NCBI GenBank assembly: GCA_050859015.1 | Contig: CP139473.1 | Coordinates: 471,927-535,926 of the forward strand | Origin: Dehalogenimonas sp. | GTDB lineage: Bacteria > Chloroflexota > Dehalococcoidia > Dehalococcoidales > Dehalococcoidaceae | Reading direction: 5' to 3' | DNA length: 64,000 nucleotides | Shown here: positions 39,367 to 62,293 of the stretch, piece by piece | Layout: each line of letters begins with the position of its first letter | Numbering within the stretch: the first letter of the stretch is position 1 | Made by a program: the position numbers and the translations under genes | Notes under the pieces: model-generated | Database searches by the model: none | What the model saw: the letters and a program-made list of their open reading frames with translations, nothing else | What the model was told of the DNA's origin: nothing

Positions 39367-40245
39367 TCAGTTGCAGCTGTTGAAGTGCTTGTTTAGGAAC
39401 TGCAGCACGTTTTCCCGAATTAACGGATAATCCTGCCAGTTATAATCATGACCGGGCGCCCCAATATACAGTAGCACGTTGCCCGGCGAGGCTGGGCTTT
39501 TCCCGCGAAGGGCATCCCAGTTGGCTCTGAAGGCCCGACCCCAATGACCGTAACTGAAAGCGTCGGGGACGACTCCATTAGAGCGCATATTTAGCACCCG
39601 GTCGCCTACGTAATTGTCGTACCAGAACGGCGGCCCGAATTCGATTGAAAAAAGCCTTTCTTCTTCAGGCAACATTTTTATTACCTGGTTGGACATCACC
39701 GTTCCATTGCTCTCGGCGCACATCAACACTTTGAGATCGGGCAAATGATGCCACAAGAATTTTAATCTTAATGCCAACTCTCTTGGTTTGGAGACCGACT
39801 TGGCCCCAGCGTTCAGAATTTCGCTGATATACCCCCGCAAACTGCGGTAAGCCCGCTGGTAATTGAGCACCAGAACCCGGCAATTTCGGGTGATGAACTC
39901 ATCTTCTATTGCGTTAACGATTGTGGCGTATCCGGAGGCTTTATCCAACGCGGTCCAGCCGTAACCTCCGGAGTTGAACAACACGAAGATGTCGGTATTT
40001 TTGAGGGCTTCATAGGTTGCCAGCAAGTCCGCGGCAAGCTTGATCCTCTTCGTCTTATCCCTGGGGTGAAGAGACTTCGCCATTTCCACAGCATCGTCCC
40101 GGACGGTACCTGGTACCTGAGATAAAACGGCCGGAGGGAGGGGGAGGGCGGTGAAGGCATGGCGCATTTTGCCGGGATCGGGCATTTGCCAGCTAAAAAC
40201 CACGATCAAGCCCAGGGCGATAACAACCGCGATGGCGATAATCAT
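39367..40245 (-). CDS. Membrane-anchored hypothetical protein embedded in the arg operon
   Basis: A 292-aa ORF with an N-terminal TM helix (MIIAIAVVIALGLIVVF). No motif recognised. It starts 12 nt after the argD stop. Confidence 0.6.
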   Translation of the reverse strand: MIIAIAVVIALGLIVVFSWQMPDPGKMRHAFTALPLPPAVLSQVPGTVRDDAVEMAKSLHPRDKTKRIKLAADLLATYEALKNTDIFVLFNSGGYGWTALDKASGYATIVNAIEDEFITRNCRVLVLNYQRAYRSLRGYISEILNAGAKSVSKPRELALRLKFLWHHLPDLKVLMCAESNGTVMSNQVIKMLPEEERLFSIEFGPPFWYDNYVGDRVLNMRSNGVVPDAFSYGHWGRAFRANWDALRGKSPASPGNVLLYIGAPGHDYNWQDYPLIRENVLQFLNKHFNSCN

Positions 40246-43460: not shown

Positions 43461-43703
43461 AAAATGATGATAGAATATAGCATAGCGTTTGTGACGGGGC
43501 AAAGAATTTTAAAAATAGCCTCTTGAGCTAATTTCTGATTCAACCCTCCCAGATAAAATTATTTAGCCACGGGCTTTAGATAAAGCCGGATGGTACTAGC
43601 CAAGTACTAATACTTATGATATACTCAACCAGTTTGCTTAATTCCTGACTGGTGACCACGCTCGATTCAACTCAAATTGGATAGCTGAAATAGGGGGTAG
43701 TTC

Positions 43704-46022
43704 ATGGCGGAAAACTCAGTACTAATCGTCGACAGCGACCCCAAATCCCGCGACACAGCGGCCTGGCTCAAGGGTGCCGGTTTCCGCGTCACCATGGCCT
43801 CCACCGGCGAAGAAGCCCTGAATCTAATCGACAACCAGGACTTCAGTGTCATGCTACTAGACATGCGACTGCCGGGCAAACACGGGCTTGGCGTTTTGAA
43901 AGAGGTCAAGGTTAAGCGCCCATGGATGCAGGCCATCGTCACCACCGACCATCCCTCGGTTGAATCAGCGACCGAGGCTCTGAAACAAGGCGCTGTTGAC
44001 TACCTGGTAAAGCCGTTTTCACCCGAGGAACTGGAAAAACTGGTCAAGGAAACTATTAAGTCGGGTTCCAAGCAAAAAACCGTTTCGGTTCAGATCAAAG
44101 CAAAAACCACGCCGGCTAAAATTACCTCCCAAGCGACTTTCGTCATCTCGACCGAGAGCCTTAAAAACCTAGTCAACAGTTTGATAAAAGAACGCGAGGC
44201 GATCGGGGTTAAGGCAAAACAGGGCAAGTTCTCCTTCGATAAGATAAGAAATTTCGATGAACTTGCCCTCGATTACGACGTCACGGTGAACCCCCCGACG
44301 GCGTTCTTCATTCCGGCTTGCGAGACCATCCTCCGCTACAAACGGGGCGATAATCCGGAGATTACCCCGGTGACCGATACCACGCCGCGTGTCCTTATCG
44401 GCGTCCACCCTGATGATATCAACGCCATCAATCTCCTCGATGAAGTCTTTATGGCCAATAACCCCGATCCAAATTACACCGCCCGACGGCAGAATACCCT
44501 TATCATCGGCGTGGATGTGCTCACACCGTTGACCACCTCTTTTGCCCCTAGCATGGGCACGTACACAGCCGACTCGGGCTTCGACCTGCTGCTGACCAAC
44601 ATTGGCAACTCATCGTATATGATCACCGTGGGTTCCGAAGCCGGGGCTCAGATTCTTGCAAAGTACGCTCAGGTTCGTGAGCCGACGGTAGCCGAAACCG
44701 CTCGCCAAAAGCAAGTCCGCGAAGAGGCGTTGTCCAAATACCGCCTGTTCCTCGACATGCCGCGTGAAAAGATACCTCATCTGCTCGATACGAATTACGA
44801 TAGTCCTTACTGGAAGTCGCGGAGCGAGGCATGCCTCAACTGCGGATCCTGTATCATGGTTTGCCCCACCTGCTTCTGCTTTGACGTACAGGACGACGTC
44901 AGCCTGAACATGGTCGACGGCGAGCGGGTCAGAAAGCCCGACGGCTGCATGCTGGTAGATTTCAGCAAGGTGGCCGCCGGCGCCAATTTCCGCGGCGACA
45001 AGCTCTCACGTTTCCGCCATCGGATGTACCACAAGGGCAAGTATATGCTCGACCGCTACGGCAAGTTTGGTTGCGTCGGCTGCGGCCGCTGCTCCGTCAC
45101 CTGCCTAGCCGAGATCGCGTCGCCGCTCGAGGCTTACAACGCGATAGCAGCCTCGGAGAAGGCTAAGGAAAAAGCTCGCCGCACCATCACCAATACCCGG
45201 CCGCAGCCTGAGCTTTACCTGCCGCACATGGCCAACATCACTAAGATTACCCAGCTTGGCGCCCGCGAGAAGCTATTCGAGTTCAAACTCAAAGACGGAC
45301 ACAAGCTCGGCCACCGGCCGGGCCAATTCGTCGAAGTCTATGTCTTCGGTATCGGCGAATCACCGATCTCCCTGACCTCGTCGCCAACCCGTGACCATAC
45401 CTTCGAGGTAGCGGTCAGGAACGTCGGCAACGTCACCGGCGCCCTGCACAACCTCGAAGTTGGGTCTCCCGTGGGCATCCGCGGACCGTTCGGCAACGGC
45501 TTCCCGCTGGAGCAAATGGAGGGCAAGGACCTGCTTCTGATCGCTGGAGGCATCGGAGTCTTCCCTCTAAGATCGCTTATCGAATACGTTCTCGACAGGC
45601 GCGAGTCTTACGGCCACATCAACCTCTTGTTCGGTTCCCGGTCGCCATCGGAACGGGTTTTTTCTGAGGAGATGGCTCAATGGGCACAAGCCCCCGACCT
45701 CACCTTTATGGAGACTGTCGACAAGGGCGATGAAACGTGGACAGGCAATGTCGGAGTGATCACTACCCTAATACCGAAAGTCCAGGTCGATCCCAAGAAG
45801 ACGGTGGCGGTGGTCGTGGGTCCGCCGATCATGTACCGCTTTGTCACAAACGAGCTTAAAAAGCGCGACCTGGCCGATGACAACATCATCCTGTCGCTTG
45901 AGCGCAAGATGAAATGCGGCGTCGGCAAGTGCGGCAACTGCCAGATCAACGGAGTCTATGTCTGCCAGGAAGGCCCGGTATTCAGCCTGACCCGGTTACG
46001 CACACTAAGGGAGGCCATCTAA
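43704..46022 (+). CDS. Fusion protein: response-regulator receiver domain + HydB/AsrA-like 4Fe-4S subunit + HydG/AsrB-like FAD/NAD(P)-binding 2Fe-2S subunit of a group-3b-type [NiFe] hydrogenase
   Basis: REC: VLIVDSD, phospho-acceptor context MLLDMRLPG, IVTTD, YLVKPF. Middle: CLNCGSCIMVCPTCFCFD and CVGCGRCSVTC. C-terminus: RPGQFVEV, GESPIS, LLLIAGGIGVFPL and CGVGKCGNCQ. Confidence 0.85.
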   Translation: MAENSVLIVDSDPKSRDTAAWLKGAGFRVTMASTGEEALNLIDNQDFSVMLLDMRLPGKHGLGVLKEVKVKRPWMQAIVTTDHPSVESATEALKQGAVDYLVKPFSPEELEKLVKETIKSGSKQKTVSVQIKAKTTPAKITSQATFVISTESLKNLVNSLIKEREAIGVKAKQGKFSFDKIRNFDELALDYDVTVNPPTAFFIPACETILRYKRGDNPEITPVTDTTPRVLIGVHPDDINAINLLDEVFMANNPDPNYTARRQNTLIIGVDVLTPLTTSFAPSMGTYTADSGFDLLLTNIGNSSYMITVGSEAGAQILAKYAQVREPTVAETARQKQVREEALSKYRLFLDMPREKIPHLLDTNYDSPYWKSRSEACLNCGSCIMVCPTCFCFDVQDDVSLNMVDGERVRKPDGCMLVDFSKVAAGANFRGDKLSRFRHRMYHKGKYMLDRYGKFGCVGCGRCSVTCLAEIASPLEAYNAIAASEKAKEKARRTITNTRPQPELYLPHMANITKITQLGAREKLFEFKLKDGHKLGHRPGQFVEVYVFGIGESPISLTSSPTRDHTFEVAVRNVGNVTGALHNLEVGSPVGIRGPFGNGFPLEQMEGKDLLLIAGGIGVFPLRSLIEYVLDRRESYGHINLLFGSRSPSERVFSEEMAQWAQAPDLTFMETVDKGDETWTGNVGVITTLIPKVQVDPKKTVAVVVGPPIMYRFVTNELKKRDLADDNIILSLERKMKCGVGKCGNCQINGVYVCQEGPVFSLTRLRTLREAI

Positions 46023-46771
46023 TGAAACCAAAAGTGGCATTTTTCGATTTCACTTCGTGCGAGGGTTGCCAGCTCGATGCCCTTAACCTTGATGTCGGCG
46101 AAGTCCTGGGACTGCTGGGAGCGGTAGATATCGTCAACTTCCGGGAAGTCAAGACCGATCGCTCCGATGATTACGACATCGCTTTCATTGAAGGCTCCAT
46201 CACCAAGGAATCCGAGATTCCGCGACTGCAGGCCATCCGAAATCAAGCCAAGGTGCTGGTGGCTCTCGGCGCCTGCGCCTGCACCGGCGGCGTCAACTGT
46301 CTCAAGAATGTTTACTCGTCAGAAGAACTCTTAAAGGGCGTTTATGGTGAATGCGCCTCTTTTTATAACACTATCCCAGCCCGTCCGGTCAACGCCGTGG
46401 TGCCGGTGGACTACTACATCCGCGGTTGTCCGCCCACTACCGCCGAGTTTGTCAAGGTGGTCAAGGCATTGCTACTTGGCAAGCGGCCGGACCTACCCAA
46501 CTATCCCGTTTGCACCGAGTGCCGGGTAGCAGGCAACGTCTGCGTCTTTCAACGGGGGGGCACCTGCATCGGCCCGGTGACTCGTGGCGGTTGCGACGCA
46601 ATGTGCGTCGGCGCCGGACGCTTTTGCTGGGGATGCCGGGGTTTGGTGGAAAATCCCAATACCGATTCAGCCAAGGATGTTCTGGCCCGCTACGGCCTGA
46701 CGATCGATCAAATTCTAGAACGGTTCAAGATTTACAACTCCTATTCGGAGGTATCGCAGTGCCAGAAGTAA
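46022..46771 (+). CDS. [NiFe] hydrogenase small (delta) subunit, group 3 type
   Basis: MKPKVAFFDFTSCEGCQL..., GACACTGG and YIRGCPP motifs. The ATG overlaps the upstream stop (TAATG). Confidence 0.9.
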   Translation: MKPKVAFFDFTSCEGCQLDALNLDVGEVLGLLGAVDIVNFREVKTDRSDDYDIAFIEGSITKESEIPRLQAIRNQAKVLVALGACACTGGVNCLKNVYSSEELLKGVYGECASFYNTIPARPVNAVVPVDYYIRGCPPTTAEFVKVVKALLLGKRPDLPNYPVCTECRVAGNVCVFQRGGTCIGPVTRGGCDAMCVGAGRFCWGCRGLVENPNTDSAKDVLARYGLTIDQILERFKIYNSYSEVSQCQK

Positions 46772-48030
46772 AGATCAAGGTCAACCAGTTAACCCGCGTC
46801 GAGGGTCACGGCAATATTCACCTGGAAGCCACCGACGGAAAACTCGATAAGGTCCTTTGGGAAGTCACCGAGAGCCCGCGCTTCTTCGAGTGGATGCTTA
46901 AAGGTCGCCACTTCGACGACGTCTCCACCATTTCCTCCCGCATCTGCGGCATCTGCTCGATTGCCCATACCACTGCCTCGCTTCAAGCGACCGAGGCCGC
47001 CTTCGGCATCAAGCTGACCGAACAAGCATGGCTGCTGCGGAAATTGCTTTTCGATGCCGAATTACTCGAGAGCCACGTCCTTCATGTTCTTTTCCTCATC
47101 GCACCGGATTTTTTGGGTGCCGATTCGGTCATCCCATTGGTAGCTACTCATGGCGATGTCATCGTTATGGCGGTCAGGATGAAGAAGCTGGCATACAATC
47201 TGGCCGAGGTCCTTGCCGGACGCAAGACTCATCCCATTACTCCCATCGTCGGCGGCTGGAGCAAGCTGCCGGATGTTGACGCCCTGAAGGCTGTCCGCGA
47301 GCGGCTGGTTTCCGCTCTCGATGACGCCGAGACCATGGTGGCGGTGGTCAAGTCGCTGGCGCCGATGATCCCCAATTTCAACCGTCCCACCGAGTATATC
47401 GCCCTCAAGGACTCCAAGGAATACGCCTTCATCACCGGCAAGATCGCCTCGTCGGATGGCGGAATCTACACGTTGGAAGACTATGCCAAGATCACCAACG
47501 AGTTTTGTGTTCCTCAGTCCTCCGCTAAGTACACCAAGCACGCGCGAGATTCATATATGGTCGGCGCGCTGTCCCGCTTCAACCTAAATTCGGAACAATT
47601 ATTACCCCGAGCTAAAAAAGCCGCCGCCTCACTGGGTATGAAGGCGCCGATCAACAATCCGTTCTTCATCTCTGTCGCCCAGACTGTTGAGACGGTCAAC
47701 TGCATCGAGGACGCTATCAACATCATCGACAAGCTTCTCGCCAGAGGTCTACATCCTGAGGAAGTTAAAGTCAAACCCAGGGCAGGTCGGGGGGTAGGCA
47801 TTGTAGAAGCTCCGCGAGGCATGCTCATCCACGATTATACATACAACGATGCTGGCGAGATCGTTTCCGCCAACTGCATCATCCCCACTGGCCAGAATCA
47901 CCTGTCCATCCAGAAGGATTTCGACGCCCTGGCGCCGACCATCCTGGAGAAGCCTGTCGACGAGATCCGGCATACCCTGGAAATGCTGGTCCGAGCCTAT
48001 GACCCATGCATTTCCTGCTCGGTTCACTAG
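46759..48030 (+). CDS. [NiFe] hydrogenase large (alpha) subunit, group 3 type
   Basis: RVEGHG, RICGICSIAH, EAPRGMLIH and a C-terminal DPCISCSVH followed directly by the stop codon. The GTG at 46759 has a GGAGG RBS 7 nt upstream and overlaps the small-subunit 3' end. Confidence 0.9.
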   Translation: MPEVKIKVNQLTRVEGHGNIHLEATDGKLDKVLWEVTESPRFFEWMLKGRHFDDVSTISSRICGICSIAHTTASLQATEAAFGIKLTEQAWLLRKLLFDAELLESHVLHVLFLIAPDFLGADSVIPLVATHGDVIVMAVRMKKLAYNLAEVLAGRKTHPITPIVGGWSKLPDVDALKAVRERLVSALDDAETMVAVVKSLAPMIPNFNRPTEYIALKDSKEYAFITGKIASSDGGIYTLEDYAKITNEFCVPQSSAKYTKHARDSYMVGALSRFNLNSEQLLPRAKKAAASLGMKAPINNPFFISVAQTVETVNCIEDAINIIDKLLARGLHPEEVKVKPRAGRGVGIVEAPRGMLIHDYTYNDAGEIVSANCIIPTGQNHLSIQKDFDALAPTILEKPVDEIRHTLEMLVRAYDPCISCSVH

Positions 48031-48110: not shown

Positions 48111-49595
48111 TCAGGATGCCCGCGGTTTCGGCGCGATGCCGATCGGCAGAGTAGAATCTTTTGATCCCGTGAAGCCGGATAGTTTCTGCTGCGCCGTCTT
48201 GTAGAATTTATTGACCTGGCCGTGGAATTTAACCAGTTCACCGACTTCCCGCATAAACTTGACCGGGTTCTTGAATGCAGTCAGGAAATAGGCTGGGTTG
48301 TGCTTGAGGGTAAATCTGACCCTCTGGGCGGCATAAGTAGCCCGCCAATTAGCCGCGGCCTCGGTCATCATTTCTGTCGGCACGCTTGAAAGGTTGATCT
48401 TGTTGGCGTACTCGATAAGGTACTCCGGCCAGTCTTCCAACCTCTCCGGTGGCGTGATCAAGCCCTGTTTTACGCAGTAATCGTACAGGGCGCTGCCGGG
48501 GAAGGGTACGAAGCGGTTGTACATGTAATATGGATTGTCGAGCCGTTTCAACATTTCGTGGGTGGCCTTGAAATCCTCGATGGTCTCGGTGGGATAGCCG
48601 TAGATGATGTATACCGATGTGCGAATCTTGTGACGGACCAGGCTCCAGAAAGTCTCTTCCATCTGGGGCACAGTGATGTCTTTCTGCATGAAGTCGAGAC
48701 CCCGCTGGCTGCCACTCTCCAGTCCCAATCCGATAGCGACGCAGCCGGCCTTGGCCATCAGGGCTACATCAGCCTCGGAGAGATCAGCCCTTGAATCGCA
48801 GTTCCAGGCGATCTTGATCTTGCGTTCGATGAGTAAGTTGCAGAAGTCGCGCAGCCGCTTCCGGTTGAAGGTGAAGTTATCCTCGTCGAAGCGGATGTAT
48901 TTGGCATCATAGGTTTTCCGCAGGAATTCGATCTGGGAAATGATGCGCTCGGCCGAAAGGAAGGCATAATAGCCCTTGTTATAGGACTTGTTATAGCAGA
49001 AGGCGCAGCGGTGGGCGCAGCCGCGGGAGGTGTTGATGCCGATCATGGAGTATTTCTTGACGGGTACCAGGTGCCAGGCCGGGTCCGGCATGGCTTCCAG
49101 GTCATGGACAAAAGGCCGGGGTTCGTTGATGATCATTTCGCCGTTTCGTTTGAAGGCCAGACCCTTGATTTCCTCAATTCTTAGTTCGCCAGTTTCGAGA
49201 TGGTTGGCCAGTTCCAGCATGGTGTGTTCACCGGCACCGATGACGGCATAATCGACATAGGGCTCGGAGAGGGTCTGTTTGGGCAGGACGCTTACGTGAA
49301 CGTTACCCCAAACTATAGGCACATCAGGCAGCAGTTCGCGGAAACGCTTGGATTGGTAGATGGAACCTTCCAGGTTAGGGCCGGTGATGACCGAAAGGCC
49401 GATAAGCTGAGGCTGCCATCCGACGAAGTCCTCAAGCTTGCGATCATCCACGAACCCGTCGTAGACCTGGACCTCGTGGCCGTTCTGTTCAAGGAAAGAA
49501 GCAATGTACAAAAGCCCCTTCGGCAGGTTGGTGTAGGCTTTGGCGTAATAAGCGGAATAGTTGGGATTGGGGGCGGTGACCAGAAGGATTCTCAT
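48111..49595 (-). CDS. Class B (B12-binding domain) radical SAM enzyme
   Basis: N-terminal Rossmann-like B12-binding-type region (MRILLVTAP...LLYIASFLEQNGHEV...), then SRGCAHRCAFC (CX3CX2C) and the TIM-barrel remainder. The start overlaps the upstream stop (TAATG). Confidence 0.85.
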   Translation of the reverse strand: MRILLVTAPNPNYSAYYAKAYTNLPKGLLYIASFLEQNGHEVQVYDGFVDDRKLEDFVGWQPQLIGLSVITGPNLEGSIYQSKRFRELLPDVPIVWGNVHVSVLPKQTLSEPYVDYAVIGAGEHTMLELANHLETGELRIEEIKGLAFKRNGEMIINEPRPFVHDLEAMPDPAWHLVPVKKYSMIGINTSRGCAHRCAFCYNKSYNKGYYAFLSAERIISQIEFLRKTYDAKYIRFDEDNFTFNRKRLRDFCNLLIERKIKIAWNCDSRADLSEADVALMAKAGCVAIGLGLESGSQRGLDFMQKDITVPQMEETFWSLVRHKIRTSVYIIYGYPTETIEDFKATHEMLKRLDNPYYMYNRFVPFPGSALYDYCVKQGLITPPERLEDWPEYLIEYANKINLSSVPTEMMTEAAANWRATYAAQRVRFTLKHNPAYFLTAFKNPVKFMREVGELVKFHGQVNKFYKTAQQKLSGFTGSKDSTLPIGIAPKPRAS

Positions 49596-50458
49596 TAGAT
49601 CAGGACCTCCTCGGCGAAAATTTCATCAAGAATCGAACCAGGCCGGCGGTTAAGCCCGACCACCTGCGTCAACCATGTCCCGGACTCGGGATTATCCGGT
49701 TGGCAGGCTTCTTCGGGGAAGACGTTATAGATCGGGTATTTCAGGTTCTCGTCCCCGCGGAAATGAAATACCCGGTTCAGGTGTTTTTTCACTGATACAG
49801 CCGCTTCGTCCATCTCTGCTAGCGTTGGTCTCTGCCAGTGATTGCCGCCGCAGGGGAAGTAGGGTAGCAGGATGAAGGGGATGTTGGGGTCGCGCATGGC
49901 GACATAATCGGCGATCTGCTCGATCTCGTCGGCACCGATATAGCCGGGTATCAGGACTGAGTCGACCACTAGTTTTGTGCCGGATGCTACCAGGGCATCG
50001 AAGTTACTTAACGTTTTTCTGTTCGAGACGCCCGTATAGTCGATGTGAAGTTTTTCATTCAGGGCTTTGAGGCCGACCTCCAGAGTGTCGGTGCAACTAA
50101 GGTCAGGTAGCGTGTGGGCGTTGGTGACCAGCGTCACTCTGGCTCCGTACTTTTCATGGCACAGACGGGTGAATTCGGGATAAGCCGGGTCGAGGCCGGC
50201 TTCCTGTCCCTCGATAACCACGGAGTGAAAATCGAGTTCATCCAGGATCTTTTCGACTTCGCCGAGAGTCAGGAAACGGGTTGGCGGTTTCGCGGCTAAA
50301 GCCGGGCGTGCGTCCAGCATCTTCCAGAAGTCCAGCATCGGGCTGAAGATCTGGTTGACGCAGTAGCAACCGAGGCATCTGAAGTTGCAGCCCCAGAAAT
50401 GGACGCAGACATCCTTCTGCTCCGGGGTGTAAGTGATATGGTAAATATTTGTCCTCAC
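49595..50458 (-). CDS. Non-canonical CX3CX2C (radical-SAM-activase-like) protein, paralog 2
   Basis: GCNFRCLGCYC. It aligns end to end with the C-terminal 270 aa of the gene at 50654..51796. It has EGQEAGLDP where GGEP is usual. The GTG start overlaps the stop of the 60-aa ORF (GTGA). Confidence 0.75.
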   Translation of the reverse strand: MRTNIYHITYTPEQKDVCVHFWGCNFRCLGCYCVNQIFSPMLDFWKMLDARPALAAKPPTRFLTLGEVEKILDELDFHSVVIEGQEAGLDPAYPEFTRLCHEKYGARVTLVTNAHTLPDLSCTDTLEVGLKALNEKLHIDYTGVSNRKTLSNFDALVASGTKLVVDSVLIPGYIGADEIEQIADYVAMRDPNIPFILLPYFPCGGNHWQRPTLAEMDEAAVSVKKHLNRVFHFRGDENLKYPIYNVFPEEACQPDNPESGTWLTQVVGLNRRPGSILDEIFAEEVLI

Positions 50459-50637
50459 TTTGACCTTGCCAGTAATGAATTATCCCTGAGTCCAGCGATG
50501 TGCTCCCGCCCGTTACCGCAGCCGGCGTCTGCCCAGGGCGGCACTGTTTCGGACCATCGCCGCGCCCCGCGATCTGCGATAAGGAACATCGTGGACCCAA
50601 TCAGTGAAACAACAGTTATTATCAAGACGGTCAACAT
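50455..50637 (-). CDS. 60-aa single-pass membrane peptide inside the rdh accessory operon
   Basis: MLTVLIITVVSLIGSTMFLIADRGARRW... An AGGAG lies 8 nt upstream of the ATG. It starts 17 nt after the preceding stop and has a 4-nt overlap with the next gene. Confidence 0.55.
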   Translation of the reverse strand: MLTVLIITVVSLIGSTMFLIADRGARRWSETVPPWADAGCGNGREHIAGLRDNSLLARSK

Positions 50638-50653
50638 TTTCAGCGCTCCTGTA

Positions 50654-51796
50654 TCAAACGGCGACTTTGTCCAGTTCCTGGCTGGCCAGGAATGCTGGCG
50701 GGACAGCGCCTGTAACCTGGCCTATGCCTTCGGGGAAAGCGCTGGAGACGGCATATTTGAGTTCTTCATCGCCCCTGAAGAAAAAGACGCGCGGGAGGTG
50801 TTTCCGGGCGGCTTCGGCTGCTCGCTCCATTTCGGCGATAGTTGGTCTCCGCCATGGATTGTCGCCCGCCTTGAAGTAAGGCAGGATGACGAAGAGCATA
50901 TCCTTCTTTATTGATGCCACATGCTGGGCGATCCGCTCGATCTCCTCGATGTCGATATAGCCTGGGATATAGACCGATTCGACAAAGGTGTCTTTGCCGG
51001 AAGCCACCAGCCTCTTTAGATTCTCAAGAATGGGCGTGTTGGATACCCCGGTGTAATCGATGTTCAGGTGATCCGAAACGGCCTTGATGCCAATTTCTAC
51101 GCGATCGACATGGGTCAGGTCCGGCAGCTGCAGTCCATTTGAAAGAAGCAGGTTCTTGGAATGATATCTCTCGTGGAGCAGGCGGGCGATATTGGCGAAT
51201 TCCGGGTCAAGTCCCGCTTCCTGTCCTTCCAGCACGACCGAGGTGAATTCGTATTTATCGAGGATAGCCAGCAGTTCATCGATGGTCAGGAATTCCTCCG
51301 GGGCGGGCGCCGTGCCGGTCGGGTCTTGCCGGTGGGCACCGAGGAAGTCGGGCAGCATGGGGGAGTAGATACGCCGTTTGCAGTAACAGCCGCGGCATTC
51401 GATATTGCAACCCCAGAAGAACAGGCAGATCTCCTTGAGTTCCGGAGTGTAGGAAATGTGGTAGATGCGGGTCCTGGCGGAGCCATCATGATAGACGCCC
51501 AGCTTTTTGAACTCGTTGATGATCAGCTCGGCGTTCTCGCTGAAGGTGACCATAGGCTCGACCTTGAACTCGGATAGGCAATACATCGGGAAGTCGATCA
51601 GGTTCTTGATGAGTTCCTCATGCGATGGCACGTCGAAGATCAGGAAACCCCCGCCTGCGGCGAAGCTGTAAGCGCTCTCAAGAATGCCTTCAGCTTTCTT
51701 CTGTTTGATCCATTCTTCACTCTTTCTGAGGAACATCACCTTGGTGTTGTAATCCGGCGGGTAAACTGCCTGTTTTCCAGTGGCGTAGTATTTCAT
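50654..51796 (-). CDS. Fusion of a ~110-aa alpha+beta (muconolactone-isomerase-like?) domain with a non-canonical CX3CX2C radical-SAM-like domain, paralog 1
   Basis: Start at the ATG at 51796 (MKYYATGK...), with a GAGGAAA RBS. The N-terminal domain contains GGGFLIFDVPSHEELIKNLIDFPMY. It is followed by GCNIECRGCYC, EGQEAGLDP, IDYTGVSN and IPGYI. The extra 25 codons in the ORF track run through a hairpin. Confidence 0.75.
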   Translation of the reverse strand: MKYYATGKQAVYPPDYNTKVMFLRKSEEWIKQKKAEGILESAYSFAAGGGFLIFDVPSHEELIKNLIDFPMYCLSEFKVEPMVTFSENAELIINEFKKLGVYHDGSARTRIYHISYTPELKEICLFFWGCNIECRGCYCKRRIYSPMLPDFLGAHRQDPTGTAPAPEEFLTIDELLAILDKYEFTSVVLEGQEAGLDPEFANIARLLHERYHSKNLLLSNGLQLPDLTHVDRVEIGIKAVSDHLNIDYTGVSNTPILENLKRLVASGKDTFVESVYIPGYIDIEEIERIAQHVASIKKDMLFVILPYFKAGDNPWRRPTIAEMERAAEAARKHLPRVFFFRGDEELKYAVSSAFPEGIGQVTGAVPPAFLASQELDKVAV

Positions 51797-51840
51797 TATA
51801 TTTCCTCGAAACTGCGAACTTGATTGCTGCGAACCCGGGT

Positions 51841-51870
51841 TGAGGTGGAGGGGAAACTCCCTCCACCTCA
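51841..51870 (-). other. Strong hairpin between rdhB and the accessory genes (no U-tract)
   Basis: TGAGGTGGAGGG and CCCTCCACCTCA form a 12-bp perfect stem around a ~6-nt loop, starting 8 nt after the rdhB stop. Confidence 0.6.
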
Positions 51871-51878
51871 CTTAAATG

Positions 51879-52172
51879 CTAGGCGGCTGTCTTGCGCTTG
51901 GCGATCAGAACGCCGGCGACGGCGAACAGGATGAGAGCCGGGATGCCCATGAAGGTCAGGAACATGGTGGCAGCCTGATTCTCCCATTCTGAAACCGAAC
52001 CGAAGTAGTTCTGGAGAGCAAAGAGTCCGAGCAGCAGACCGACGGTGATTATCGCCCAGTCATACCACTTGGTGACTTTGCCCTTGCTGCGCAGGAAGAT
52101 ACCCAGGACCGCCAAAAGCCCGATGCTTACAGCGGAGATCAGGAACCAATAGGGAGCTTGATAGATCGTCAT
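51879..52172 (-). CDS. rdhB: Reductive dehalogenase membrane anchor
   Basis: A 97-aa protein with three TM helices, 26 nt downstream of rdhA, with an AGGAGAAAG RBS. Confidence 0.85.
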   Translation of the reverse strand: MTIYQAPYWFLISAVSIGLLAVLGIFLRSKGKVTKWYDWAIITVGLLLGLFALQNYFGSVSEWENQAATMFLTFMGIPALILFAVAGVLIAKRKTAA

Positions 52173-52198: not shown

Positions 52199-53746
52199 TT
52201 ACCGGCCTTTCCAAGCCGAAGCAGCGGTGTCGATACCCATGGTCGGCAGGTTCATATCCCACCAATCTTCCGGGTTGTCCATGTTGCCGTAACCGAAGGA
52301 TTCGCCCATGGTGGCGAAGAAGCTGTTGAACAAAGATGTTTGGGAAATGGTTTGCTTGACCAGGGCATGGACCATGGCGGCGCTGTCGATTGAGAAGGTG
52401 CAGTAACCCCAGCACTGGCTGCAGCCTGAGGCTTCGGAACGGTATTCCTGGCAGCGGACGTAGTTGTTCCAAAGCATCTTGGCGCCCAGGGCATGGAAAG
52501 TGCGTGATTTGCCTTCGAAGGCCGGCGGTTCGTAGGTGGCCGCGTCGCTCCTGGTGGTCGTCTCGATACAACCGGCGGGGCAGTTCTTGGCGCAGAAACC
52601 GCAGGTCTGGCAGAATTTCCACATGCCGGCGTCGATTGGCTTGGTGGGCGCCAGATCCAGGTCGGTTACGAAAGCGGTCGGATACTGGGCTGGACCGAAT
52701 TCCGCGGTCAGACCATAGTTCTGCTGGCGGGAGGATTCTTCGCCGCCGACCATGACGCCGGCGCCGTTGACGTTGAAGATTTCAGTCTGATGCCCGGTGT
52801 TCGAGCAGCTCTGGTAGCCCAGGCTGCGGATGAAGCGGTGGAGACCGCCGTAGATGAAGTCCGAAAGCGTGCCGCCGGTGCCGTTGGGGCCCGGGAAGCT
52901 GGTGGTGTAGTAGCCCTTGGAGGCGTTCGGCGCCTTGAGGAACTGGCGGGCGACCGGGGGAGTAGCCCAGATGACCGACTTGAAGCCGGAAGGAATCACC
53001 ATCTTGCCTTCGATCGATTCCAGGTCAACCGGCGAGGGAACATCCTCGATGGTGTACTTCAGCGAGTTTTTCTCTGTCGGCAAGTTGCTCTCATACGTGC
53101 CGCCCTTGTACTCGGCGGTGGCGCCCTTGGTGGTGTAGGCCACCAGCATCTTTTCTCGCCAGAAGGAATCGAATTGAGCGTAGCCGGTGAGGGACGCGCC
53201 GTAATACCGCAGGGCAGCGTTCATCATCTTGGAGGCCTCTTCCGGGGAACCGGTCCATTTGGTGGTACCGAGATCCGCGGGGGTCTTGGAGGGGGTGTAG
53301 GTCGTAGCTGAGTTGAGAGCTGTCGGACCGGTCCAGCTTTTCCTCCAGTTGAGGCCCATGGCGGCGGCGCTGGACATGACCCTTGACCTGAGGGTGTAAC
53401 CGGGAGTTTCGAAGGTCCGGGCGTCGGTGATTGCTTTTCCTTTAGCTGCGGCTGCTTCGCGGCGAGCCCAGGTCTCGGTGTAGTATGATTTGCACAACGT
53501 GGTCTGGGATTGGTAGCGGCGGTCGTAGCGCTTCAAGAGAGACTGATCGATTTCGGTGGTGGGATTCAGGAAATCGCGCTCTTTAACGTACCAGGGCCGC
53601 TGTGGCGCGGCTCCGCTGGAGGCGGCGAGTTCATCGAGGTCGTGGAAGGTAGGTGCGACGAGAGCCGCAGCACCGATTCCAGCCCCGGCCAGGCCGAGAT
53701 TCTTCATGAAATCACGGCGTGATACGGTTCCGTGGAATATAGACAT
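52199..53746 (-). CDS. rdhA: Reductive dehalogenase catalytic subunit (corrinoid/Fe-S)
   Basis: TAT signal SRRDFMKNLGLAGAGIGAAALVAP. Two Fe-S motifs, CQTCGFCAKNCPAGC and GCSQCWGYC. 515 aa, followed by rdhB. Confidence 0.9.
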   Translation of the reverse strand: MSIFHGTVSRRDFMKNLGLAGAGIGAAALVAPTFHDLDELAASSGAAPQRPWYVKERDFLNPTTEIDQSLLKRYDRRYQSQTTLCKSYYTETWARREAAAAKGKAITDARTFETPGYTLRSRVMSSAAAMGLNWRKSWTGPTALNSATTYTPSKTPADLGTTKWTGSPEEASKMMNAALRYYGASLTGYAQFDSFWREKMLVAYTTKGATAEYKGGTYESNLPTEKNSLKYTIEDVPSPVDLESIEGKMVIPSGFKSVIWATPPVARQFLKAPNASKGYYTTSFPGPNGTGGTLSDFIYGGLHRFIRSLGYQSCSNTGHQTEIFNVNGAGVMVGGEESSRQQNYGLTAEFGPAQYPTAFVTDLDLAPTKPIDAGMWKFCQTCGFCAKNCPAGCIETTTRSDAATYEPPAFEGKSRTFHALGAKMLWNNYVRCQEYRSEASGCSQCWGYCTFSIDSAAMVHALVKQTISQTSLFNSFFATMGESFGYGNMDNPEDWWDMNLPTMGIDTAASAWKGR

Positions 53747-59111: not shown

Positions 59112-59786
59112 TTATTTCTTGATGAAATAGCCAGTGCCGGACTTGGTCATTATGGCGCCCTGCATACCGATGTCGCCAAGTTTCTGCCGCAGGTTGCGCA
59201 TATGCACCCGGATGGAGTTGGCGGCGTCCGCCGGGACCTCGCCCCAGATGGACATTGACAGGTCATTATGGGAAACCGGTTTGCCCATGTTCTGGGCCAG
59301 GCAGTAGAGCATCTTGCCTTCGGTGGTGGTTAACTTAGTGCTCTGTCCACCACATGTGACCAGGCGTCGGGAGGCGGAGAAATGGAACTGGCCGATTGAT
59401 ATTGGCGAGCCGCTGTCGCTAGCCCTCTGGCGACGAAGCAGTGCTTTAGCCCGGGAGACAAATTCCATCTGGCGGAATGGCTTGGTGATGTAATCATCGG
59501 CGCCCAATTCCAGTCCGCGGACGACATCAGATTCCTCATCCCGAACCGTCAGGATGATTACCGGTACATTGGAATGGGTACGGACCTCCTTGAGCAGTTC
59601 GAGGCCGCTCTTATCCGGCAGGCCGAGATCCAGAATGATCAGGTCGGGATTCTCTTTGTCCGCCAGTTCGATGCCTTCCTGGGCAAGCCCGGTAAAGACA
59701 ATCCGGGAATCTGGCCAGCTCACCCTCAGGCACAGGCTAACCAGTTCGACGATGGCGCTGTCGTCTTCCACGATCAAGATTTTCAT
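59112..59786 (-). CDS. OmpR/PhoB-family response regulator
   Basis: REC domain (KILIVEDD, LIILDLGLPD, YITKPF) plus a winged-helix output domain (...IRVHMRNLRQKL...GTGYF). Confidence 0.95.
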   Translation of the reverse strand: MKILIVEDDSAIVELVSLCLRVSWPDSRIVFTGLAQEGIELADKENPDLIILDLGLPDKSGLELLKEVRTHSNVPVIILTVRDEESDVVRGLELGADDYITKPFRQMEFVSRAKALLRRQRASDSGSPISIGQFHFSASRRLVTCGGQSTKLTTTEGKMLYCLAQNMGKPVSHNDLSMSIWGEVPADAANSIRVHMRNLRQKLGDIGMQGAIMTKSGTGYFIKK

Positions 59787-59800
59787 GCCAGTTTTCCTCC

Positions 59801-62293
59801 TTACGATTTACTATACGGTATCTTGAAATTAAAGGTGCTGCCTTTGCCATGGGCGCTTTTCAACCAAATTTGACCACCGTGCAACTCAACGAACATTTTA
59901 GACAGGGCTAAACCCAAACCGAGGCCGCCGAGACGCTTTTTGTCGGTATTTTGACCCCGGTGGTACGGTTCGAAAATATACGGCAAATCGGCAGTGGCGA
60001 TACCTATCCCGTTATCGGCCACCGATGTGACCGCCCCATCGGGATCTTGTCGCAGAGATATTTTAACGTGACCGCCCTTGCGACTGAATTTGAATGAGTT
60101 GGATACCAGGTTGGTTACGACCTGTCGCAGGCGGTCGGGATCGGCGCTGATAACGACCGGCGCCTGAGGCAGGTCAAGCTCGAGTTGAATTCCTCGTTGT
60201 ATGGCCTCCGGTCGGACGTATTCTGCGATCTTCTCCAGTAGAGCGGCAAGATCGAAAGAACGATAGCTGAGCCGAAGGGTCCCGACCTCGCCGCGAGCCA
60301 GGTCCAGTAGTTCGTTGATCCTCTTTTCCATATTTCTGGCACCGACTTTAATATTGTGGGCAAAGCTTCGGGCGGTATCGTCGGTCAGGCTGGCTTCAAG
60401 ATAATCAGACGCGGTCAAGAGGGGGGTTAGCGGCGTTTTAAGTTCGTGAACTAGAGCCCTGGTGTAAAGAGATCGCTCTTCGATCTGCTGCCTCAACGCG
60501 CTTGATAGAGTCTGCTCTCTGTCAAAAAGCAACCGCAATTCACTCTCGGCTTTCTGCCTCTGGGATATTTCCGATCCTAGGGCTTCGGTGCGCGCGGCAA
60601 CCATATCCTCAAGCCGGTGCTGGTAACCCTCGATCTCCTCCTGCGACTTCCGTTGTTCGGTGATGTCACGGACGATGGTAATGGTGGACATGGAACCATC
60701 GGGATGAGGCTGAAATGTCTGGATCAGTTCGCAGGGGAAAAGCTCTCCGCTTTTACGCCGCTGAAATGCCTCGGTACGAAAGCTTTCGGTGGCCTTCCCG
60801 CTGGATATGGCCTCGGAAAGCCGGCGCGATTGAGCCAGGTAGGAGGCTCGGTCAGGAAACAAAAACCCGTGAGTGCGCCCCAGGCATTCTTCCGGTGTAT
60901 AACCGTACAGTTCGACCATGCGGCGGTTAACGTATTCTATCCGCTTCCCTGGCCGGCGGACGACAACAATTGCGTCGGGCAGGGAATTGTTCAGCTTTTC
61001 AAGCCGGTCCCGGCTCTCCTTGAGTTCCCGCTCGGCCGATTTGCGGTGGGTGATATCAAGGCCATAGAGATTAAGGAAGCCGTTCGCTGTATCAGGGAAA
61101 AGGGTAAGAGCGTAGGTCGCGCCCGGGATTTCGAGCTCCGCTTCGAATTCCTCCCCGGTTTTCCAGGCCCTCCCAGCCTGTTCAGGCCATGGGGGCGGGA
61201 GGACGCCACCAGTGTCGATATGCCATTCCCGCAGAAGCGGCGAGGCGGCGGGGTTGGCGAACAAAACGCTTCCTTCCATCGAGACACGAAGTACCGGACT
61301 CGGGTTGGACAGCGGGAAAGCCGCCAGGCTGCGGATCTCAGCCTCCTGTTCCAGCCTTTTCCTGATGTCGCGGATCACCGACAGGATCACCGTTTTGCCA
61401 TTCAGTTCGAATCTATGGGCGGCAACCTCCGAGGGTATGGGTTGTCCCGATTTGGTGCGGTGAACGATCTGGACGGTCAGCTGCCCGGTTCGTTGGAACG
61501 CCTCGGAGCTGACGTTAACTTGAGCGTAACTTTCAGGCGTGTTGAGGTCGCGAGCTGACAGATGAAGCATCTCTTCATGGGTATAACCGTATCTGTCGCA
61601 GGCGATCTGATTGGCCTCGATAACCCGGGCTTCATTGCCGCTACCGGGCATCTCCCAAAGGATGATGGCATCGCCGGTGTTATCGAAAAGGGCGCGGAAG
61701 CGCTGTTCGCTATCGCGGAGCGATTGGGTAAGACGCACCCTCTGTATGGCATTGCCCAGCACCAGGCCGATCTTTTCAAGCTCGGCGACCAAACCGGCCG
61801 GGACCATGTTCTCATGCCGGTCCGCTACGTGGATCAAGCCGAGGACCGAATCCCCCGATCTTATTGGAATCAGAGCGACGGATTCATATCCGTGGGCGTT
61901 GCAGGCGTTACGCGTTCGACCCTTTTCATCTTCTGAAACCGTGGCGAGGAAATTGCTCGTCCGGTTCATAAAGAAAGAACCTATTTCAGTGTAGAACGGC
62001 TTTGACGGGTCGGTCGTTCCGGCGATGACGTTTATGCACATGCAGCGATCGGTGCCGATCACCAAAGGACTTTCGAGTTCGACGAAATCCCTGGAAAATC
62101 CTTCATAGACAGAATAGGGAATACTGCGATCCGCATCGAGCAATCGGATGCCGATCGCGGAGCATCCTGTGAGCGCTTTAAACTCTGCAAGAAATTCTAC
62201 CAGCAGTGGTTTGATCTCGACATGCCGATTAGCGATCTCAAGAAATTTGTAGGCGGTTTCCAGTGTCTGTCCTGACCGGAGCTTGGTTGTCAC
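59801..62293 (-). CDS. Multi-sensor (GAF + several PAS) histidine kinase
   Basis: N-terminal GAF-like region, repeated PAS modules, H-box HELKTPLTP and HATPase N/G boxes (DNGIGI, GGLGLGL). It ends 14 nt before the response regulator gene. Confidence 0.9.
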   Translation of the reverse strand: MTTKLRSGQTLETAYKFLEIANRHVEIKPLLVEFLAEFKALTGCSAIGIRLLDADRSIPYSVYEGFSRDFVELESPLVIGTDRCMCINVIAGTTDPSKPFYTEIGSFFMNRTSNFLATVSEDEKGRTRNACNAHGYESVALIPIRSGDSVLGLIHVADRHENMVPAGLVAELEKIGLVLGNAIQRVRLTQSLRDSEQRFRALFDNTGDAIILWEMPGSGNEARVIEANQIACDRYGYTHEEMLHLSARDLNTPESYAQVNVSSEAFQRTGQLTVQIVHRTKSGQPIPSEVAAHRFELNGKTVILSVIRDIRKRLEQEAEIRSLAAFPLSNPSPVLRVSMEGSVLFANPAASPLLREWHIDTGGVLPPPWPEQAGRAWKTGEEFEAELEIPGATYALTLFPDTANGFLNLYGLDITHRKSAERELKESRDRLEKLNNSLPDAIVVVRRPGKRIEYVNRRMVELYGYTPEECLGRTHGFLFPDRASYLAQSRRLSEAISSGKATESFRTEAFQRRKSGELFPCELIQTFQPHPDGSMSTITIVRDITEQRKSQEEIEGYQHRLEDMVAARTEALGSEISQRQKAESELRLLFDREQTLSSALRQQIEERSLYTRALVHELKTPLTPLLTASDYLEASLTDDTARSFAHNIKVGARNMEKRINELLDLARGEVGTLRLSYRSFDLAALLEKIAEYVRPEAIQRGIQLELDLPQAPVVISADPDRLRQVVTNLVSNSFKFSRKGGHVKISLRQDPDGAVTSVADNGIGIATADLPYIFEPYHRGQNTDKKRLGGLGLGLALSKMFVELHGGQIWLKSAHGKGSTFNFKIPYSKS

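Follow-up and report, generated by a model that had tools for sequence, protein, structure and literature searches.

The 64,000-nucleotide stretch of Dehalogenimonas sp. DNA analysed here (the window) contains a hydrogenase operon whose first gene, at 43704-46022 on the forward strand, encodes an electron-transfer subunit that carries a phospho-receiver (REC) domain at its N-terminus. By its motifs and profile scores the enzyme is a soluble, cytoplasmic, NAD(P)-linked [NiFe] hydrogenase of the group-3b type, composed of three polypeptides: a REC-beta-gamma fusion, a delta subunit and an alpha subunit. Our survey of related loci indicates that the addition of the receiver, and not the fusion of beta to gamma, is the novelty in this enzyme and that it is almost restricted to Chloroflexota of the Dehalococcoidia type. 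We infer that beta and gamma were already fused when the receiver was added, as a lineage-specific event, and that the receiver is paralogous to a single-domain response regulator which sister lineages encode as a separate protein in the same operon. We propose that it serves as a phosphorylation-dependent switch on the diaphorase module. The identity of the protein and of the enzyme is near certain; to the whole statement, including a working phospho-switch in the window protein, we assign a probability of about 0.55.

A receiver-diaphorase fusion heads the hydrogenase operon

The open reading frame (ORF) at 43704-46022 is intact, begins with an ATG that has a GGGGG ribosome-binding site ahead of it, and contains no internal stop. 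It encodes 772 amino acids (aa). The features of the operon are listed below with the evidence for each; pLDDT is the predicted local distance difference test of AlphaFold2, and dN/dS is the ratio of nonsynonymous to synonymous substitution rates.

43704..46022, + strand: REC-beta-gamma gene, fused diaphorase subunit, 772 aa (Pfam, NCBIfam, at least 120 orthologous clusters with like architecture)
43704..44066, + strand: receiver (REC) domain, aa 1-121 (Pfam E 4.8e-23, AlphaFold2, alignments)
44067..44147, + strand: linker, flexible and weakly conserved, aa 122-148 (pLDDT, conservation, dN/dS)
44148..45143, + strand: beta module (HydB/ShyB/AsrA-like), aa 149-480, with [4Fe-4S] motifs C377-C392 and C457-C467 (NCBIfam, PDB)
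45213..46019, + strand: gamma module (HydG/ShyC/AsrB/PyrK-like), aa 504-772 (NCBIfam, PDB)
46022..46771, + strand: delta, small [NiFe]-hydrogenase subunit, 249 aa (Oxidored_q6 4e-23, HydD 1.2e-59)
46759..48030, + strand: alpha, large catalytic subunit, 423 aa (NiFeSe_Hases, ShyA 7.5e-81, PDB)
43597..43625, + strand: sigma-70-like promoter candidate, TAGCCA-17-TATACT with an upstream TG (weak, by consensus match only)

Within the fused protein, Pfam places Response_reg at residues 6-114 (81.9 bits against a cut-off of 30.2), Fer4_22 at 377-471 (E 7e-30), FAD_binding_6 at 511-598, NAD_binding_1 at 612-714 and DHODB_Fe-S_bind at 733-765. The NCBIfam models recognise sulfhydrogenase beta at residues 149-471 (ShyB 5.9e-66, HydB 2e-52) and gamma at residues ~500-768 (PRK08345 7.5e-78, AsrB 5e-66, HydG 2e-61). 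The gamma module comprises an FAD-binding and an NAD(P)-binding domain, with GGIG at 615-618, and a C-terminal [2Fe-2S] site (C738/C743/C746/C754). The cofactor motifs of beta and gamma and all of the cluster cysteines are invariant in 66 sequences. An earlier reading of the window, which we call the original prediction, had described one 772-aa polypeptide at the head of a hydrogenase operon, with a receiver followed by a HydB/AsrA-like and then a HydG/AsrB-like domain; the intact frame, the coupled subunit genes and the domain searches bear out both the polypeptide and its domain order.

At the junction of beta-gamma and delta, in the sequence TAATG at 46020-46024, the TAA stop (46020-46022) and the ATG (46022) share one base, and the GTG of alpha at 46759 lies 13 nucleotides ahead of the delta stop at 46769-46771. 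These overlaps show that the three genes form one tightly coupled operon. It is divergent from argJ-argB-argD, and the promoter candidate sits in the 200-bp gap between argJ and the operon, although a scan of promoters and terminators found no more sites than in shuffled sequence.

The alpha subunit has both nickel-iron ligand motifs, RICGIC (N-terminal RxCGxC) and DPCISCSVH (C-terminal DPCxxC). Its C-terminus (48001-48030) ends exactly at the histidine of the second motif. With no C-terminal extension present, a HycI-type protease would have nothing to cleave off, and hycI is absent from the operon. The alpha subunits of D. lykanthroporepellens BL-DC-9 and of a REC-beta locus among the relatives (L089) are likewise unextended, and those of most relatives have 5-6 more residues.

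The original prediction had allowed that a missed stop or a frameshift might have created an artificial fusion, and it had advised a search of other genomes for the same architecture. Among 5.8 billion proteins, at least 120 clusters match REC-beta-gamma, with identities of 59-92%, 100% query coverage and an identical Pfam domain set. Complete genomes are represented by those of D. lykanthroporepellens BL-DC-9, D. formicexedens, D. etheniformans, WBC-2 and 4OHTPN. The same 772-aa frame thus recurs in several independently finished genomes and in more than 100 metagenomic clusters, and this recurrence excludes a sequencing or assembly artefact. The fused protein is present in every sequenced Dehalogenimonas (PMC13390414, Table S1). 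The BL-DC-9 locus has the same three genes with the same arg genes upstream, and the window alpha subunit is 97% identical to its D. formicexedens counterpart, which places the source of the window close to that species. No Dehalococcoides mccartyi orthologue appeared among the best 120 matches listed for REC-beta-gamma or for alpha, and the literature and its supplements yielded nothing on cbdbA595 or DET0613-0616.

The enzyme is a hydrogenase of the group-3b type

The original prediction of a group-3b-like hydrogenase is upheld by the scores of the alpha subunit against both NCBIfam models and solved structures. The 3b models score highest (ShyA 272 bits, HydA 252), ahead of VhuA of group 3c (154) and FrhA of group 3a (142). 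Among structures, the best matches are the Thermococcus kodakarensis enzyme (5yxy, 224 bits, 2e-65) and sulfhydrogenase SHI of Pyrococcus furiosus (216 bits; 9nez_D, 7e-63), with lower scores for MvhA of group 3c (193 bits) and HoxH of group 3d (116 bits). The beta module matches SHI beta (9nez_B, 2.7e-44) and the gamma module matches SHI gamma (9nez_C, 3.3e-59). All of these scores are far under the NCBIfam equivalog cut-offs (for example, ShyA 272 against 700 and HydG 208 against 650), so the enzyme is a distant bacterial member of group 3b and not an orthologue of the Pyrococcus proteins. The partner set of the group is complete, with delta, a beta module bearing two [4Fe-4S] clusters and a gamma module bearing FAD, NAD(P) and [2Fe-2S] sites, the latter two modules being fused. 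Electrons are predicted to pass between NAD(P)(H), FAD, the [2Fe-2S] cluster of gamma, the two [4Fe-4S] clusters of beta, the clusters of delta and the NiFe site. The window enzyme therefore shares its four modules and predicted cofactors with P. furiosus SHI (HydBGDA) and SHII (ShyBCDA) and with the T. kodakarensis cytosolic hydrogenase, the best-matching enzymes of known structure. It differs from these enzymes in having beta and gamma in one polypeptide, an added N-terminal receiver and an alpha subunit that ends at histidine.

Several other assignments were considered and rejected. An F420-reducing hydrogenase (Frh, group 3a) would be expected to have an FrhB-like gene and the operon has none, with FrhA scoring 142 against a cut-off of 392 and FrhG 51 against 245. 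An AsrAB-type sulfite reductase is contradicted by the absence of an AsrC-like gene from the operon, where the partners are the small and large [NiFe] subunits. The operon contains no MvhD or Hdr gene of the kind associated with the Vhu/Mvh type (3c), and VhuA scores below ShyA; in Dehalogenimonas, Vhu-Hdr is a separate eight-gene locus (PMC13390414, Table S1), and one of the related contigs (L085) likewise has its Vhu-Hdr cluster as a separate locus. A regulatory, H2-sensing hydrogenase (2b) shares only the unextended C-terminus of alpha with the window enzyme, whose best matches belong to 3b and whose operon encodes no kinase.

The names under which this enzyme appears in public records do not convey this identity. 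A 2026 comparative-genomics paper lists the operon as 'F420-reducing hydrogenase homolog' (PMC13390414, Table S1); its public locus tags are Dehly_0927-0929, Dform_00600-00602 and DGWBC_1202-1204. The database names of the fused subunit are generic or wrong: '4Fe-4S dicluster domain-containing protein', 'NAD(P)H-flavin reductase', 'response regulator receiver protein' and 'heterodisulfide reductase cytochrome reductase subunit'. Names found in databases also include 'sulfite reductase subunit B' and 'Coenzyme F420-reducing hydrogenase'. The gene has been public as 'response regulator receiver protein' since the BL-DC-9 genome and has apparently gone unstudied.

The receiver is conserved and under purifying selection

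The nearest relatives of the receiver among solved structures are receivers of the NtrC family (NtrC1, 1zy2, 1e-19; NtrC, 4e-18). AlphaFold2 returns a clean (beta-alpha)5 receiver fold (pLDDT 79-91), a disordered segment at residues 122-138 (pLDDT ~33) and well-folded beta and gamma cores. The window receiver has D10, the phospho-acceptor D53, T81, the switch residue Y100 and K103. D53 aligns with D54 of NtrC, D57 of CheY and D54 of Spo0F and is invariant in 121 of 121 family members, which disposes of the concern, voiced in the original prediction, that the domain might prove to lack a phospho-acceptor. D10, P57-G58, T81, Y100 and P104 are also invariant across the 121 sequences, and K103 is present in 119 of them.

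The conservation extends to surfaces through which receivers communicate. The alpha4-beta5-alpha5 face is the usual output surface of a receiver and alpha1 its usual kinase-docking surface. A set of invariant or near-invariant residues (P84, S85, E87, E91, A92, D99, Y100, P107, L110, E111, L113 and T117) clusters on alpha4-beta5-alpha5, and W21-L22 in alpha1 belongs to the same conservation class. Between the window and BL-DC-9, dN/dS is 0.12 for the receiver (dS ~1.2) and 0.31 for the linker. Within the clade the receiver is as well conserved as the N-terminal part of beta (identity 0.83 vs 0.82). The linker is the least conserved stretch of the protein, with an identity to the query of 0.29 across the family. 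By these measures the receiver is under purifying selection.

The receiver, rather than the beta-gamma fusion, is the unusual part

We surveyed 80 loci, taking one genome per GTDB species and annotating by profile searches, which recover the divergent free receivers downstream of HycI. A fused beta-gamma protein without a receiver (~640 aa, 43-50% identity) is common in Bathyarchaeia, Thermoplasmatota and Theionarchaea, and such proteins occur also in some Chloroflexota, Planctomycetota and other bacteria. They resemble the window protein in the fusion itself and in the gene order beta-gamma-delta-alpha, with 43-62% identity to its residues 147-772, and differ from it in having no receiver. 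Beta and gamma are separate proteins in many Anaerolineae and Phycisphaerae. The original prediction was right that characterised enzymes of this kind have separate beta and gamma subunits and no receiver, but the beta-gamma fusion turns out to be ordinary in uncultured lineages.

Among the surveyed loci, the full REC-beta-gamma arrangement was confined to metagenome-assembled genomes (MAGs) that bear the labels Dehalococcoidia, Dehalococcoidales or Chloroflexota, and one that bears the label Thermotogae (L003-L011 and L015). In a library clustered at 50% identity, REC-beta-gamma forms a single cluster (P0121). The MAG labelled Thermotogae (L015, 7239-13454) has one 894-aa ORF with the order REC-REC-beta-gamma and a second beta-gamma pair just upstream; its protein is 57% identical to the Dehalococcoidia proteins, so the label is odd and mis-binning is possible.

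Related loci place kinases and receivers beside the hydrogenase

In Dehalococcoidia outside Dehalogenimonas, a free single-domain receiver gene usually precedes the operon, and its product is 74% identical to the fused receiver of the same locus. The free gene is directly upstream in L004, L006, L007, L010, L085 and L086, and in L015 the two receivers and the diaphorase modules are one ORF. A histidine kinase of 366-511 aa lies just past alpha on the opposite strand in L007, L010, L015 and L085, one gene further off in L086, and directly upstream in L006. The 401-aa kinase of L085 begins with a strongly hydrophobic third, by our reading about four membrane helices, and continues with HisKA and HATPase.

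A different arrangement occurs in two MAGs labelled Dehalococcoidales or Dehalococcoidia (L009 6132-9417, L011 6166-9445), in which a kinase and a sigma54 NtrC-type regulator are directly upstream of REC-beta-gamma. This kinase is 649 aa long and combines an [FeFe]-hydrogenase H-domain (Fe_hyd_lg_C) and an FeS domain with HisKA and HATPase. The union of an [FeFe] H-domain with HisKA and HATPase is the architecture of HydDB group C1, a putative H2 sensor. The original prediction had placed the enzyme under post-translational rather than transcriptional control, which is too strong a contrast for a family whose members pair the receiver fusion with an adjacent sigma54-type regulator.

The beta subunit carries signalling domains in other combinations as well. 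The 50%-identity library contains seven REC-beta clusters in which gamma is separate and two REC-HisKA-HATPase-beta clusters, all in complete hydrogenase operons; the REC-HisKA-HATPase-beta family as a whole comprises some 28 clusters, of which one bears the label Anaerolineae. Two contigs of the Anaerolineae type (L083 3169-14174, L084 3121-14175) read REC, two Cache-HAMP kinases, REC, REC-kinase-beta, gamma, delta, alpha, HycI and REC, with NuoE/NuoF-like and formate-dehydrogenase-like genes coming next. The HycI protease and the receiver after it are one protein in L083. The REC-beta locus L089 encodes a further receiver, along with a Cache kinase that is divergent and accompanied by a sigma54 regulator.

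A further operon type has the receiver behind HycI. Five Chloroflexota and two Planctomycetota loci share the order beta-gamma-delta-alpha-HycI-REC-kinase with a constant offset (L039, L046, L052, L068, L070, L071 and L077), and HycI-REC alone, without a kinase, is found in five more, including a Calditrichota MAG (L047, L055, L057, L074 and L081). In both sets these genes lie ~4.1-4.6 kb past the start of beta. The receivers of the relatives keep the acidic pair (D-D, or E-D in cluster P0203), the phospho-acceptor aspartate, the threonine, the lysine and the aromatic switch residue, with the exception of cluster P0134, which has E-S for the acidic pair and serine at the threonine position.

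The archaeal loci with fused beta-gamma have no kinase or receiver within 4 kb, with the sole exception of a free receiver in a Bathyarchaeota MAG (L029, 9980-10372). The 130-aa receiver (Pfam 5.5e-29) is encoded 0.9 kb ahead of a beta-gamma gene that lacks REC, and an unannotated 200-aa ORF lies between the two.

A proposed switch on electron flow, and its alternatives

A receiver that stands alone as a single domain has no output module of its own and works through binding to a target. Fusions of this receiver type with beta take at least three forms (REC-beta-gamma, REC-beta and REC-kinase-beta), and elsewhere the same operon encodes it as a free protein; by the logic of fusion, beta is the probable target. 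In our proposal the receiver is tethered to the N-terminus of beta by the flexible linker of ~27 residues and a dedicated kinase would phosphorylate Asp53. The Thr81/Tyr100 switch and the alpha4-beta5-alpha5 face would then alter the contact of the receiver with beta or with a second receiver. Electrons might thereby be gated on their way between the pyridine-nucleotide module and the dimer of hydrogenase subunits, or the oligomeric state or assembly of the enzyme might change. Such control would be fast and post-translational and would operate alongside any transcriptional control. In Dehalogenimonas the phosphodonor might be an orphan kinase or acetyl phosphate. The loci of the relatives support the view that hydrogenases of the 3b type are placed under direct two-component control.

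A number of observations weigh against this proposal. Gene neighbourhood and domain fusion imply a functional link, and not its direction or mechanism. One locus (L012) encodes a beta-gamma protein with 62% identity and no receiver, which shows that the enzyme core can do without it. The AlphaFold2 model (predicted template modelling score, pTM, 0.47) shows no interface between the receiver and beta and is uninformative on domain packing. The 64-kb window contains no free receiver and no dedicated kinase. Its only kinase is an 830-aa PAS-HisKA-HATPase protein (59801-62293, minus strand), 14 nucleotides from an OmpR-type regulator (59112-59786, minus strand), and the two are to all appearances a self-contained pair, so that this kinase is not an obvious partner for the receiver. 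The original prediction was correct in finding no cognate kinase in the operon; its suggestion of the kinase at 59801-62293 as the nearest candidate is undercut by that protein's own OmpR-type partner. The acidic pocket raises a further difficulty, because Ser11 stands in place of the metal-binding second aspartate of the DD pair. It aligns with D11 of NtrC in a HMMER alignment to the solved structure, and with D13 of CheY, D11 of Spo0F and D10 of PhoB in MAFFT alignments to reference sequences entered by hand. The CheY mutant studies of Bourret and colleagues reportedly established that both Mg2+ binding and normal phosphorylation depend on D13. The claim in the original prediction that all of the receiver landmarks are complete thus stands for D10, D53, T81 and K103 but not for the 'VDSD' pocket. 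The window receiver has four of the five canonical residues, and its competence for phosphorylation is uncertain.

In the strongest alternative, the Dehalogenimonas receiver no longer takes phosphate and has become a constitutive structural, dimerisation or docking domain, the relic of an ancestral two-component link that was lost in genome streamlining. The pocket reads D10-D11-E12 in 111 of the 121 sequences and D10-S/A11-D12 in the other ten, all of the Dehalogenimonas clade, BL-DC-9 having alanine at position 11. The same clade has a one-residue deletion and several substitutions in helix alpha1, and its locus is without the adjacent free receiver and kinase of the sister lineages. The loss from alpha of the protease-dependent C-terminal extension is consistent with a streamlined locus. 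At 52-54% identity, as compared with 62-65% over the full-length protein, the receiver is also the folded module that has diverged most from its counterparts in sister lineages. Yet a purely structural domain would have no need of a phospho-acceptor or switch residues, and D53, T81, Y100 and K103 have been kept under a dN/dS of 0.12. The change of Glu12 to Asp beside Ser11 looks compensatory, leaving two carboxylates in the pocket, and in BL-DC-9 an orphan PAS kinase is encoded 4.7 kb upstream of the locus. On balance we regard a receiver that has ceased to take phosphate as unlikely, though it is the alternative to be taken most seriously, and the window copy may be the degenerate end-point of a 3b system that was wired to two-component signalling.

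The direction of signalling could also be reversed. The complex would then mainly sense H2 or the redox state of NAD(P)H, its beta and gamma clusters setting the phosphorylation of the receiver (in the Anaerolineae, of the kinase) for relay onward, as a 3b-derived analogue of a regulatory hydrogenase and its HoxJ kinase. The REC-HisKA-HATPase-beta proteins do put a kinase physically inside the hydrogenase complex, free single-domain receivers and sigma54 regulators occur in the same clusters, and the window alpha resembles the regulatory hydrogenases in lacking a C-terminal extension. It is not obvious, however, why a sensor would need the full FAD/NAD(P) module with its invariant cofactor motifs; alpha is closest to catalytic 3b enzymes, the genome-reduced Dehalogenimonas keep the enzyme in all sequenced strains even though its partners have left the locus, and an N-terminal receiver is normally an input and not an output. 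We consider a sensory role quite improbable. An artefact or a misassignment to AsrAB sulfite reductase or F420-reducing hydrogenase has on its side only that some database names read sulfite reductase, F420-reducing hydrogenase or heterodisulfide reductase. The recurrence of the frame in finished genomes, the coupling to [NiFe] subunit genes, the lack of AsrC- or FrhB-like genes and the scores of FrhA and FrhG, far below those of ShyA and HydD, refute it and reduce its likelihood to a negligible level.

The switch on the diaphorase module may be one case of something broader. Tentatively, and at somewhat less than even odds, the 3b hydrogenases of Chloroflexota may be an unrecognised class wired directly to two-component phosphorelays, to which those of Planctomycetota and Calditrichota probably belong as well. 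A kinase would phosphorylate a receiver that is docked on or fused to beta and, at some loci, to the HycI protease, and would thereby switch electron flow and maturation after translation; in cultured organohalide respirers, the REC-beta-gamma protein of the window would be what streamlining has left of the system. Some of the dedicated kinases of this class would carry an H2-sensing domain of the [FeFe]-hydrogenase type.

Relation to known systems

The regulatory hydrogenases of group 2b (with HoxJ/HupT and HoxA/HupR) and the [FeFe] C1 group resemble the window enzyme in that a hydrogenase is tied to two-component signalling. In those systems the hydrogenase senses and the output is transcription. 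The window enzyme, a 3b hydrogenase of the catalytic type, has the receiver built in, and some of its relatives have the kinase built in as well, so that the hydrogenase looks like the target of the signal. Response regulators whose output is an enzyme, such as the methylesterase CheB, the diguanylate cyclases PleD/WspR and the phosphodiesterase RpfG, are generally known to share the plan of an N-terminal receiver, a flexible linker and an enzyme domain gated by phosphorylation; the window protein differs from them in that the output is an Fe-S/flavin electron-transfer subunit and the receiver is without the second aspartate of the acidic pocket. The diaphorase modules are also related to AsrA and AsrB and to PyrK (beta to AsrA, 7e-36; gamma to AsrB at the score given above and to PyrK, 5e-47, or 7e-19 for 1ep3_B), but their partners in the window are the small and large subunits of a hydrogenase and not AsrC or PyrD.

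To our knowledge, the known control of hydrogenases is almost wholly transcriptional or exerted through maturation. A receiver in the diaphorase subunit suggests rapid and reversible tuning of the coupling of H2 to NAD(P)H, which serves anaerobes as a central redox valve, and the recurrent fusions of receivers, kinases and HycI-REC in the relatives point toward the same kind of tuning. The only kinase-linked classes in HydDB are [NiFe] 2b and [FeFe] C1, with no 3b subclass that has signalling domains. A survey of [NiFe] neighbourhoods records kinases and regulators as frequent neighbours in general and is silent on 3b and on fusions. We found no description of a receiver- or kinase-fused 3b hydrogenase in the open-access full-text literature, nor any characterised enzyme with the REC fusion, in keeping with the original prediction. 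Were the phosphorelay class to prove real, it would provide the first case of a phospho-receiver gating a [NiFe] hydrogenase. Dehalogenimonas matters for bioremediation and its hydrogenase inventory has been mislabelled; the correct assignment of this operon changes models of how NAD(P)H is formed from H2 in these bacteria.

Other genes in the window

Three consecutive genes for radical S-adenosylmethionine (SAM) proteins occupy 48111-51871 on the minus strand, between the hydrogenase operon and an rdhB-like (51879-52172) and rdhA (52199-53746) pair. One encodes a 494-aa protein of the B12-binding type, and the other two encode paralogues of 287 and 405 aa that share the N-terminal motif 'YHI(T/S)YTPE...FWGCN..C.GCYC'. 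On the other side of the operon, beside argD, a gene at 39367-40245 on the minus strand encodes a 292-aa protein with no Pfam match; its BL-DC-9 counterpart, of 294 aa, is also next to argD and likewise matches no Pfam family.

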